NCBI GenBank assembly: GCA_041687695.1
Contig: JAWLBL010000009.1
Location: 202,906-266,905 of the forward strand
DNA from: Myxococcota bacterium
Lineage (GTDB): Bacteria; Myxococcota_A; UBA9042; PHBI01; JAWLBL01
DNA length: 64,000 bases
Direction: 5' to 3'
Part shown: positions 38,001 through 41,000 of the stretch, in pieces
Layout of the letters: the number at the start of each line of letters is the position of its first letter
Numbering within the stretch: the first letter of the stretch is position 1
Position numbers: made by a program

Positions 38001-41000
38001 GAAGCGCTCGTCGAAGGTGCGAAAGCGCTCGAGCAGGACCTCGCGGCTGTCGCAGGGCTCGCTCTGGAGCGAGGCCCAGGCGCCGAGTTGGCTCTCGCGT
38101 GGGCGGGTGGCGAAGTAGGCATCGGCTTCGGCGTCGCTGACGCGCGTGACGGGGCCGCGAACGCGGACCTGGCGCAGCAGGACGTCCCAGTGAAAGCACA
38201 AGGAGGCGTACGGATGCGCGGACAGGGCCTGCGCCTTGGCGCTGTCGGTGTTGGTGAAGAAGTCGAGGCCCGCGCGGGTGATCTGCTTGACCAGGATGAC
38301 GCGCGCCGAGGGACGTCCGTCCGCGTCGATGGTGGCGAGGGTGGCCGCGTTGGGGTTCGACAGGCCGGCGGCGCGGGCGTCGGCGATCCAGGCCTCGAGC
38401 GTCGCGAGGGGATCGGGCGGCGCGTCGTTGGAGGAGGCGGAGGCGGAGGCGGCGGAGTCGATCATGGGGCGCTCCGGAGGGGAGGGGCGCGGGTTCACCA
38501 GCCCGCGCGGATGGGCGCGACCACGCGGGCTTTGGGGGCCGCATGGACCTTCGGCAGGTGGGCCGCGTAGCTCGACACGGCCACCGTCCCCTCACGGCCA
38601 GCGTGTTCGCCGACGATGAAGGTGATGGCCTTGTCCAGCCCGGCGGCCGCGTAGGCCTGTATGTCGGTCGTAGCGTTGCCGTAGGCGGCGCGAATGTCGA
38701 GCCCGGCCTCGCGCAGGCGGTCGAGTCGCGCCCGCTTGAAGGAGACCACACCGGCGGAGGTCGGCAGGACGTCCCGGTTGCGATCGGTCGTGATCACGGC
38801 CCCGGGCGGGAAGCCCTTGCGGGCCAGCCACTCGAGCGTCAGCGGGCGCAGCAGGTCGGGACGCCCCGTCAGGTAGACGATCTGGTGGCCCTTTCGCGCC
38901 CAGGCCCACAGCACCTCGGGCGCGCCGGGCCACATCGCGGGGACGTGACGGCCGGCGCGCAGCTCCGCCCACAGCTGCTCGAACAGCTCGGCGTCGCGGG
39001 TGGTCAGGGTCCCGTCGATGTCGGCGACGATGGCGGCGGTCCCGGGCGCCACGACCGTGAGCGTCAGCGCGGCGTAGCTGAGGTCGCCGCGGACCAGCAT
39101 GCGGATCGGGTAGTGGCCCACGGGCAGGGCGCGATCGGGCGGGACGACGAAGTACACCCGCCCGCCGTCGTCCGGGACGTCGAAGCGGTCGCCGTGCTCG
39201 CCGTCTCGGGAGGTCACCGCGATGCCGAGCGACTCCCACGGGCCGCAGGGACCGTGGCGCTGGACGAAGACCTCTACGTCCTCGCCCTGGAGGTCCTTGT
39301 CGGCGGGACCGTACGCGAACTTGCCGATGAGCACCTGGGGCGCTCCGGCGCGGGTGATGACGTCCTGGCCGCGGTGGACGGGCGGCCCCTGGGTCACGGT
39401 GAGCAGGCGCGTGGACGTGCGACGCCACCCGGCGGCGGGCGCCGGCGCGGTGAAGGCGACCGGAGACACGCAGGCGCTGCGCAAGTCGGCGAGCGCGGGG
39501 GCTGGGATGACCAGCGTCAGCAGCCCCACGGTGACGAGGAGGGCACGCATGGTGGCGGACTGTCCCACGGCGCGACCGCGCCAGCAACGGGGTGCTTGCT
39601 TCCGCGCTCTCCCGGGGTCTACCTTCGCGCCCGCCATGACTGGGGACCGGCGAGGGAGCGCGAGCGGATGGGGTATGTGCTGATGGCCTTCGCCGCGGGG
39701 GCGGCCGTCGCCCTCCAGGGCGTCATCAACAGCCAGCTGCGGCCGATGTGGGGCCTGGTGCCGGCCGTCGTCCTGAACATGGTCGTCTCGAGCGTTCCCA
39801 TTCTCCTGTACTGGGTCGTCCAGGGCGCGCCGACGCCCAGCCGCGCCCAGCTCGCCGAGACGCCGCCCATCTTGTGGATCGGCGGCCTGTGCGGCCTGTT
39901 CATCGTCATCTCGGGCGCGCTGGTCTTCACCCGCCTGGGCGCGACGACCGCCCTCGGCCTCATCCTCGCCGGCCAGTTCGTGGTCGCGGCCCTGGTCGAC
40001 CACTACGGATGGCTGGGCATGCCCCAGCAATCCTTCAATGTCAGCCGCGCGGCCGGCCTGCTGCTGCTCGGACTGGCCGTGTGGCTCTTCCGGCGCTGAC
40101 CCTCCTTGGGGTACCTTCTTCCCATGAAGATCACGCTGCGCGGGCCCGAAGACCTGACCATCAACGACCTGGACGCCCCCGGGTTCGAGGTCGTCAGCGA
40201 CAACGACAAGGCCGTCTACAGCGCCATCCAGATGTTCGCGGTGTCGCTCGGCCTGTGCACCTACTCGGTGGTCCTGCAGTACGGCGAGGCGCTCGGGGTC
40301 GACGCGACCGGGCTGACGCTCCGCCTGCGCTGGCGCTACGCCGACGAGCCGTTCCGCATCGCCCACCTCGACGTGGACATCGACTGGCCGGCCATGCCCA
40401 GCGACCGACTCCGCGCCGTCCAGCGCGTCGCGGCCCACTGCACCCTCCACAACACCCTGCGCCACCCGCCCGAGGTCGTCACTCGGGTCGCCAACGCCGA
40501 CGGCCGCTACCACTTCTGAGGCGCCCCGCGTCGGCCGTGGCCCGCCCCGACGCGCGCGCGGACCGTGTCAACGCCGCCTCGCCGTGATATGTCCGCGGCG
40601 ATGCCGTCCGCCGCCCCGCGCCCGCCGACGACCCCCGACGAGGCCAGACGCGCCCTGGTCGCGCGCATCGAGGCGACCCTGGACGACCTCGCCGAAGCGG
40701 TCGACGCGGCCGCCGAGCTGTCCGCGCTGGGCCCCGAGCGCCACGCCCCACGCCTGTCCCGCCTGGCCTCCGACTCCGAAGCGGCGCCCGCCGCCCGCGC
40801 CGCCGCCGGCATCGCCCTCGGCGCCTCGGCGCCGGCCGATTCGCGCTGGCTGGCGCTGGTCGCGCGCGCGGCCCTCTCCGACGGCGCGCCCGAGCTGGCC
40901 GCCGCGCTGACCGAAGCGCCGACCGACCTCGCGCACGTCGAGGTCGCCCGGGCCGCCCTCGACGTCTCGGCCGCGGCCCTCTACGCGCCACTCGCCTCCC

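Follow-up and report, generated by a model that had tools for sequence, protein, structure and literature searches.

A predicted exported phosphatase of the Nir/lipin fold in Myxococcota and its likely relation to the Nir/RdgB phosphatidic acid sensor

Introduction

The described proteins closest to the one analysed here belong to the Nir/RdgB and lipin/Pah families; App1-type proteins and the class B/C HAD acid phosphatases also enter the comparison. Class B/C HAD acid phosphatases are exported DxDxT enzymes that scavenge phosphate from soluble monoesters. Nir2/PITPNM1 (RdgB; PDB 9jtz, 9jzp, and 9jz1) is a cytosolic, multi-domain protein (PITP, FFAT, DDHD) that lacks the nucleophile and the Mg ligands and relies on K1126, V945, and the basic patch R1074/R1149. 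Lipins, which are also cytosolic, combine a capless HAD domain with an Ig domain split into N-Lip and C-Lip. According to the available text of the Pah1 and Pah2 reports, R193 of Pah2 (R445 of Pah1) and other core residues are required in both enzymes (PMC12357310; PMC12657724), and Arg269 of Pah2 is needed for phosphatidic acid (PA) but not for pNPP, since R269E spares pNPP hydrolysis and cuts PA hydrolysis (PMC12657724). A membrane-binding helix is described, in the sections available, for residues 1–18 of Pah2 (PMC7066176) and residues 613–630 of Nir1 (PMC12419160), and Khayyo et al. linked the capless site to membrane substrates (PMC7066176). Yeast App1 and the secreted Toxoplasma protein GRA38 are PA phosphatases, as stated in the available part of PMC12711892.

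Donation of lipid genes to eukaryotes by myxobacteria has precedents (PMC13012113 and PMC9131029, from the text available). A 2026 preprint (10.64898/2026.05.08.723234) gives either Planctomycetota or Myxococcota as the sister group of LPIN, which the portion available mentions once; PITPNM, Nir2, RdgB, and LNS2 are absent from its main text, and its figure and supplements may include family members. The first-pass annotation of the DNA studied here had noted that the main text of the Nir2 structure paper (PMC12582312) does not contain the string "bacteri". Our term search agreed, and the string was likewise absent from the main text of the PILS-Nir1 paper (PMC12419160) and of the Pah2 papers of 2020 (PMC7066176) and 2025 (PMC12657724); a term search of PMC8266687 gave no match. 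Within the open-licence literature (subscription papers being outside this scope), our searches turned up neither a described Nir-type protein in bacteria nor a proposal that the module came from them, and no description of extracytoplasmic lipid dephosphorylation by a Mg-dependent bacterial enzyme of the lipin fold. New here are the nesting of the eukaryotic module within a Myxococcota subfamily, a pseudo-enzyme of the breviate Pygsuia that retains a bacterial insert, a family in which Asp155 and the motif-II Arg of lipin are retained but Arg269 is mostly lacking, and a range beyond Myxococcota.

Results

Gene and reading frame

The window, which is the whole stretch of 64,000 nucleotides analysed (contig JAWLBL010000009.1 of a Myxococcota genome, assembly GCA_041687695.1), contains the gene P0001, whose features are listed in Table 1. 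Its translation has zero internal stops, and the frame stays open further upstream, to 672 amino acids. The ATG at 39550 is the likely start, because codon-position GC changes from 0.74/0.53/0.93 within P0001 to 0.93/0.49/0.70 in the stretch upstream, where YdcZ and OsmC genes lie on the opposite strand. The 672-amino-acid form was discarded on the basis of codon-position GC. A pdxH gene abuts P0001, and a role in pyridoxal-phosphate metabolism was considered and discarded, because a pdxH, YdcZ, or OsmC neighbour was present in 0 of 108 other loci and the protein is of the exported type. No neighbour recurred across these 108 loci, generic histidine kinases excepted, and a promoter and terminator scan at P0001 found none.

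Table 1. Positions of P0001 and its features in the window
Feature	Positions	Strand	Basis
P0001, exported-type Ig+LNS2 (HAD) protein, 351 aa	38495..39550	-	Translation, Pfam, codon GC
Signal peptide, residues 1-21: MR, then a hydrophobic core, ending in A-L-A; lipobox absent	39488..39550	-	Inspection; hydropathy 2.67
W42-G55, W/F followed by helix (45-54 in model)	39386..39427	-	Position from alignment offsets
Ig-like beta-sandwich PF24695, residues 59-166, includes C102	39053..39376	-	Pfam, model
13-residue insert G117-G129, mark of one Myxococcota subfamily	39164..39202	-	Alignment, tree
Capless HAD/LNS2 domain PF24694, residues 172-341	38528..39037	-	Pfam, profile, model
Motif I D177-I-D179-G-T181 (= Pah2 D146/D148; Nir2 S1025/D1027)	39008..39022	-	Alignments
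D186 (= lipin Mg ligand Asp155)	38993..38995	-	Alignments
Motif II T228-G-R230 (= Pah2 R193, Pah1 R445; Nir2 T1065)	38861..38869	-	Alignments
Motif III K272 (= Pah2 K244; Nir2 K1103)	38735..38737	-	Alignments
Motif IV G291-N292-A293-T-T-D296; A293 at lipin Arg269 position	38663..38680	-	Alignments

Domains and fold

Both Pfam families of the Nir module scored above cut-off on P0001: PF24695 (PITM1-3 beta-sandwich) at residues 59–166 with E = 3e-21, and PF24694 (LNS2_PITM1-3) at residues 174–314 with E = 2e-24. Pfam detected no PITP, FFAT, or DDHD domain ahead of the module, which the signal peptide directly precedes. The gene, its domains, and its fold thus agree with the original description of a 351-residue protein with an apparent signal peptide and the whole Nir2-type module. 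The only PDB sequence match was again Nir2 9jtz (E = 8.3e-38), with DIDGT in P0001 where Nir2 has SIDGS. The 35% identity to PITPNM1, given earlier over 318 columns, also stood (114 of 327 columns against the chimpanzee protein, BLASTP), whereas the assignment of 9jtz to human did not; its construct is mouse Nir2 910–1190, as given in the available text of PMC12582312.

The mature chain, modelled with AlphaFold from a 150-row alignment at a pLDDT of 95, superimposed on Nir2 with Z = 31.3 and an rmsd of 1.7 A across 252 aligned residues, of which 40% were identical, and Foldseek concurred. The Tetrahymena lipin Pah2 (6tzz) followed with Z = 19.6 over 232 residues that span both domains (22% identity), and other HADs reached at most Z = 15.6, the plant class IIIB enzyme 4fyp scoring 12.6. 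Profile matches gave E = 4e-62 for Nir versus 1e-18 for lipin. P0001 has the Rossmann-like core and the four motifs of a HAD protein and no large cap, which places it in cap type 0. Matches to other Pfam families were below the cut-off for lipin (PF08235, 23.8 bits versus 32.3), above it but weak and partial for App1 (PF09949, E = 2.5e-7), and E = 1.4e-8 for acid phosphatase (PF03767). NCBIfam has no model that covers the P0001 family. Source databases label some homologues "LNS2 domain-containing" or "phosphatidylinositol transfer protein"; because Pfam covers both domains and these names exist, the family is annotated though unstudied. A search for longer, fused forms gave two among 8000 candidates, one fused to M23 and the other probably a read-through; this is weak evidence.

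Active site

Residue conservation was determined in 261 bacterial-type proteins, namely the best 120 of 129 matches plus 141 more from the best 150 of 1193. These rows were ranked by similarity and not selected by motif, and the Pygsuia protein was taken out. Positions were mapped by alignment onto Nir2 (PMC12582312) and Pah2 (PMC12657724), as far as the available text of both papers gives them. A separate set of 80 loci was picked by motif and, for that reason, is not counted as motif evidence.

The residues D177, D179, T/S228, K272, N/D292, and D296 were all retained in 252 of 255 ungapped rows; position 186 was D or E in 254 of 261, and R230 was Arg in 257 of 261. Animal Nir rows, by comparison, had SIDGS in 66 of 66, in line with the motif difference first reported, and Val at the position of D186. 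From this conservation we predict that P0001 is very probably catalytically active. A motif-II Arg was also present in unrelated HADs (L133–L136).

The residues that would contact the substrate were less lipin-like. Position 293, equivalent to lipin Arg269, was Ala in P0001 and in 222 of 261 rows, and Arg or Lys in 16 of 261. At the position of V945, a docking residue of Nir2, Lys was found in P0001 and in 220 of 261 rows; at that of Nir2 L943, 195 of 261 rows had a large hydrophobic residue and P0001 had Ala. The acidic, amphipathic C1 insert of the P0001 family was unlike that of lipin.

Membership was considered family by family. P0001 shares with Nir2 the two-domain fold, a place in the same tree clade, and the phosphate-site residues equivalent to D1027, T1065, K1103, and D1127. 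It differs in being a stand-alone protein with a signal peptide and the 13-residue insert, and in lacking K1126 (T295 in P0001), V945, and the basic patch. With lipin/Pah it has in common the Ig and capless HAD domains, equivalents of DxDxT, Asp155, the motif-II Arg, Lys244, Asn268, and Asp272, and the helix ahead of the Ig domain; in contrast to lipin, it lacks Gly158/His159 as well as Arg269, has an unsplit Ig domain, is of the exported type, and falls outside the lipin clade. App1-type proteins (PF09949) resemble it in the DxDxT HAD domain and, for GRA38, in secretion, but form their own clade and have motif IV of the type GDSGExD rather than GNxxxD (GNATTD in P0001). The class B/C acid phosphatases (PF03767), although exported DxDxT enzymes too, have no Nir-type Ig domain and far lower structural scores. 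By membership, P0001 is neither Nir nor lipin, but a predicted intact enzyme of their fold.

Export and membrane features

The N-terminus of P0001 is, by inspection, a signal of the Sec/SPase I type. By a simple hydrophobicity rule rather than a trained predictor, a hydrophobic stretch occurred in the first 35 residues of 216 of 233 N-terminally complete homologues, versus 223 of 4660 internal windows. A lipobox-like Cys, scored with a loose pattern, was present in 169 of the 216 export-type homologues. The Cys pair equivalent to C27 and C102 was found in 220 of the 233 complete homologues, and these residues probably form a disulfide in P0001. The first-pass reading of the protein as a probably active, exported phosphatase holds as a prediction, with a full catalytic set, family-wide export signals, and the Nir2 fold.

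A conserved W or F preceded helix 45–54 in 237 of 261 rows, and by alignment offset this helix lies at the site of the Pah2 and Nir1 membrane helices. Its hydrophobic moment was 0.56 in P0001 and averaged 0.34 in the family, versus 0.35–0.50 for other helices. Because the family moment is no higher than that of other helices, the likeness is one of position and not proof.

Range and neighbourhood

Two-domain matches were present in at least 42 of 201 Myxococcota genomes, the genome studied included (counted by eye from a table), which is close to the 12 of 61 counted earlier. The family extends beyond Myxococcota: named carriers outside that phylum were Leptospira, Orenia, Planctomycetota, Bacteriovoracia, Chitinimonas, Pseudoduganella, Microbulbifer, Allohahella, and Moraxellaceae. 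In the order of Allohahella, 18 of 401 genomes had a PF24695 match above cut-off; the count was 8 of 101 among relatives of Pseudoduganella and 0 of 14 among controls. Round the core family were HAD-only forms of the exported type (L115–L122), App1-like forms, including Myxococcota ones with signal-like N-termini, and, in one family, bacterial proteins whose motif I is dead.

A secreted protein gene with PI-PLC-X and lectin domains adjoined 4 of the 80 loci, in three families of the proteobacterial branch and in two arrangements. In wider sampling with 1.5-kb flanks, one order had this neighbour at 1 of 18 loci, whereas the close kin of Pseudoduganella had it at 7 of 8; none was found in the subfamily of P0001 itself. 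In Planctomycetota, one family member (L068) was fused to a type I phosphodiesterase domain. These neighbours and the fusion hint at extracellular breakdown of phospholipids or phosphodiesters, and fit a lipid and a soluble product alike.

Origin of the eukaryotic module

The module had been described as an animal one; however, the breviate Pygsuia biforma has it too. Breviates are grouped with animals and fungi in the Obazoa. The Pygsuia protein (P0185) contains DDHD, Ig, and LNS2 domains with a dead N-V-D-G-A site, so that the module is not confined to animals. It was 38% identical to P0001 over 286 positions and shared with it a 13-residue insert, a K-D-L loop, and, within the N-helix, an identity of 9 residues. 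The insert is lacking in animals and, Pygsuia apart, is a mark of one Myxococcota subfamily. Although the protein is a single transcriptome record, we judged a bacterial contaminant or chimera unlikely, because its alignment with Lingula RdgB (collinear from DDHD through LNS2, 31% over 505 columns) crosses the DDHD–LNS2 junction and its site is dead.

The main tree was computed with IQ-TREE (LG+C20 PMSF) from 45 rows hand-picked out of 516, with the insert columns excluded. The animal Nir rows available were 64 amniote PITPNM1-type sequences, Lingula RdgB, and one that clustered with coral RdgB; eukaryotes in the trees thus represent four lineages, amniote PITPNM1, Lingula, a coral, and one breviate. 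Lipin rows, of which 42 were usable, came from metagenome contigs and covered only part of the Ig domain; a search for lipins in viral contigs returned 3 loci, none with a lipin frame. HAD-only rows were in none of the trees.

Pygsuia and the animals formed a single clade (100/96) within a clade of P0001 and six close relatives (94/94). This nesting had support of 98/94 without Pygsuia and 96/92 without the lipin and App1 rows. Lipins were a clade of their own (100/100) on a long branch of 2.5 changes per column, and the App1-like rows stood apart (100/100). Forcing Nir and lipin together gave a p-AU of 0.038, and forcing Nir, lipin, and App1 together, with Nir outside the bacterial family, gave 0.018; both groups were chosen in the light of quick trees, and these values are only moderately below 0.05. 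With FastTree and 394 rows, again without the insert columns, 159 of 162 insert-bearing rows and six eukaryotes made up a 165-row clade (support 96), in which 37 of 39 genome loci were from Myxococcota and two from unclassified proteobacterial MAGs. The closest bacterial sister of the eukaryotic clade differed between IQ-TREE and FastTree (support 62). A quick tree of 87 rows was consistent with the nesting; it omitted L141, L123, L150, and one lipin because of their long branches.

These gene trees make the P0001 family the probable lineage from which the Nir sensor came. The direction of transfer, which the first-pass annotation had set aside for a tree, was probably from bacteria to eukaryotes, while the order of the deep branches, including the position of lipin, is tentative. 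The nucleophile was missing in 67 of 67 eukaryotic Nir-type rows, so that no intact eukaryotic donor was found among them.

Discussion

On balance, we favour the view that P0001 is a phosphomonoesterase of the lipin/Nir fold that is exported, depends on Mg2+, and acts on a PA-like lipid, and that its family passed from Myxococcota to eukaryotes as the source of the Nir sensor. The protein would first be exported by Sec, most of its relatives being lipoproteins on a long linker. The N-helix and the Ig domain could then bring the capless HAD site up against an extracytoplasmic membrane face. By the standard phospho-Asp chemistry of HAD enzymes, D177 would be the nucleophile on the phosphate and D179 the acid/base, with Mg held by D177, D186, N292, and D296 and the phosphate by T228, R230, and K272. 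PA or a like lipid monoester, from the periplasm or from digested prey membranes, would be converted to diacylglycerol and phosphate. The insert may have been gained in the Myxococcota subfamily, followed by a single gene transfer to a eukaryote before breviates and animals split. After transfer, the signal peptide would have been lost, DDHD fused in front, and the nucleophile lost, with the insert lost later in animals; loss of the nucleophile would turn the substrate site into the PA sensor of Nir/RdgB.

Because lipin Arg269 is Ala in P0001 and most homologues, the substrate can be assigned only tentatively. By analogy we lean toward PA or a similar lipid monoester, because the characterised relatives on all sides (lipin, Nir2, and the App1-like GRA38) act on or bind PA. 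The capless site and the large hydrophobic residue that most rows have at the L943 position also favour it, whereas Lys at the V945 position, Ala at that of L943 in P0001, and the missing basic patch count against it. The same origin and export would also fit a phosphate-scavenging enzyme whose substrates are soluble monoesters (inositol phosphate, phosphocholine, glycerophosphate, or nucleotides) freed by secreted phosphodiesterases, PA binding having arisen only in the eukaryotic descendant. That is an unlikely but serious alternative: the missing Arg269 recalls Pah2 R269E with its selective loss of PA hydrolysis, the products of the adjoining PLC genes are soluble headgroup phosphates, and both the L068 fusion and the stand-alone exported HAD-only relatives point the same way. 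Yet App1-type proteins (GDSGE motif) also lack Arg269 and are PA phosphatases, the Ig domain and N-helix have been retained, and the PLC link is rare and absent from the subfamily of P0001. Dephosphorylation of another envelope lipid in the cell's own periplasm (phosphatidylglycerol phosphate, ceramide-1-phosphate, ether-PA, or undecaprenyl or lipid A phosphate) seems quite improbable. Lipoprotein anchoring (on the loose pattern), a capless membrane-facing site, the C1 insert unlike that of lipin, and the ether lipids made by myxobacteria (available text of PMC13012113) are consistent with it, but patchy presence and zero linkage to envelope genes fit an accessory nutritional role better than a housekeeping one.

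A different objection concerns the origin rather than the substrate. An intact proto-Nir could have arisen from lipin in eukaryotes and then been acquired by predatory bacteria; alternatively, the nesting could be a tree artefact. Myxococcota are gene collectors, the deep branches and the long lipin branch leave room for this, the AU values are only 0.02–0.04, and the 2026 preprint, in the part available, describes the signal for lipin as ambiguous as to whether it points to Planctomycetota or to Myxococcota. We consider it rather improbable nonetheless: the nesting survives removal of the long outgroups or of Pygsuia, insert-less, HAD-only, and App1-like exported forms provide deep bacterial diversity round the Nir clade, and every eukaryotic Nir-type row lacks the nucleophile.

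A more specific proposal may be made, although we hold it tentatively and at somewhat less than even confidence. The PA sensor of Nir/RdgB, and with it the PILS-Nir1 probe, would descend from a PA phosphatase exported by myxobacteria, as a now inactive copy captured before the breviate/animal split and separately from lipin, with Pygsuia as an intermediate that kept the insert and with a bacterial family that recognises PA without Arg269. In the available text on the PEDS1/plasmalogen transfer (PMC13012113; survey, bioRxiv 10.64898/2026.05.08.723234), the donor phylum, the lipid function, and the early eukaryotic recipient are the same, but those products stayed enzymes, whereas the Nir product would have become a pseudo-enzyme sensor.

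Such a history would give a central part of animal phosphoinositide signalling a concrete origin, in which an enzyme was converted to a sensor and an intermediate still lives. It would also place a signalling module among the lipid genes seemingly acquired by early eukaryotes from Myxococcota. The sensor that brings Nir/RdgB to ER–plasma-membrane contacts would then derive from a bacterial enzyme, and bacteria would own a family of exported lipin-fold lipid phosphatases with Arg269-free PA recognition; the prediction points to Mg-dependent, lipin-fold dephosphorylation of lipids outside the bacterial cytoplasm. P0001 offers a small, soluble, single-chain system for asking which residues distinguish hydrolysis of PA from its sensing.

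Inactive and lipin-like forms of the module

An inactive motif I occurs in bacterial members of the family as well as in the animal Nir phosphatidic acid (PA) sensors. In family f15 of the window's phylum the motif reads, for example, SLSGT or NVMGT. Two members with an inactive motif I (L140 and L144) were placed away from Nir in the tree, which indicates that inactivation in bacteria was independent of Nir. The subgroup with the motif GN[RK]xxD, in which the equivalent of the PA-recognizing Arg269 of lipin is present, provides, as judged from sequence, the best candidates for true PA phosphatases.

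A Nir-like pseudo-enzyme of a non-animal eukaryote, with DDHD, Ig, and LNS2 domains, was found in the EukProt record of Pygsuia biforma (P0185). It lacks a PITP domain and retains the bacterial 13-residue insert.

Related proteins and features of the window

Feature	Location	Strand	Remarks
HAD-only LNS2-like lipoproteins, exported-type	L115-L122		window's phylum
App1-like Ig+HAD proteins, signal-like N-termini	L125-L128, L151		window's phylum
Members with inactive motif I, exported-type	L123, L124, L140, L144, L148, L149, L150		family f15, window's phylum
GN[RK]xxD subgroup, lipin-like	L013, L015, L017, L054, L063, L078, L109, L110, L137		Arg269 equivalent present
PI-PLC-X-domain + C-type/ricin lectin gene, secreted	L047, L064, L076, L053, L303-L309		adjoins homologue
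Type I phosphodiesterase domain joined to Ig+LNS2	L068:4776-7691		Planctomycetota
M23 peptidase domain joined to Ig+LNS2	P0125
1615-aa protein with eCIS core domain	window 27385-32232	+	long opposite-strand ORFs adjoin
Tandem array, intergenic	window 37478-37833		~14 copies of 25-bp unit, 92% matches
Triple-FHA protein, then inositol monophosphatase-family gene upstream	window 43350-45844	-

Neighbors of the homologues

Loci of Moraxellaceae, Pseudoduganella, and Allohahella include some in which the secreted PI-PLC-X/lectin gene adjoins the homologue. A homologue is also present in L058, a contig titled as a Pedobacter MAG, whose flanking genes resemble those of Moraxellaceae loci; this contig is likely to be mis-binned.

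Other features of the window

GC skew switches from positive to negative at window position ~40000; because the skew of the whole contig is weak and irregular, this turn does not establish a replication terminus. The region encoding the protein with the eCIS core domain is possibly a contractile-injection-system-associated locus. The tandem array lies directly downstream of pdxH and has no other occurrence in the genome.
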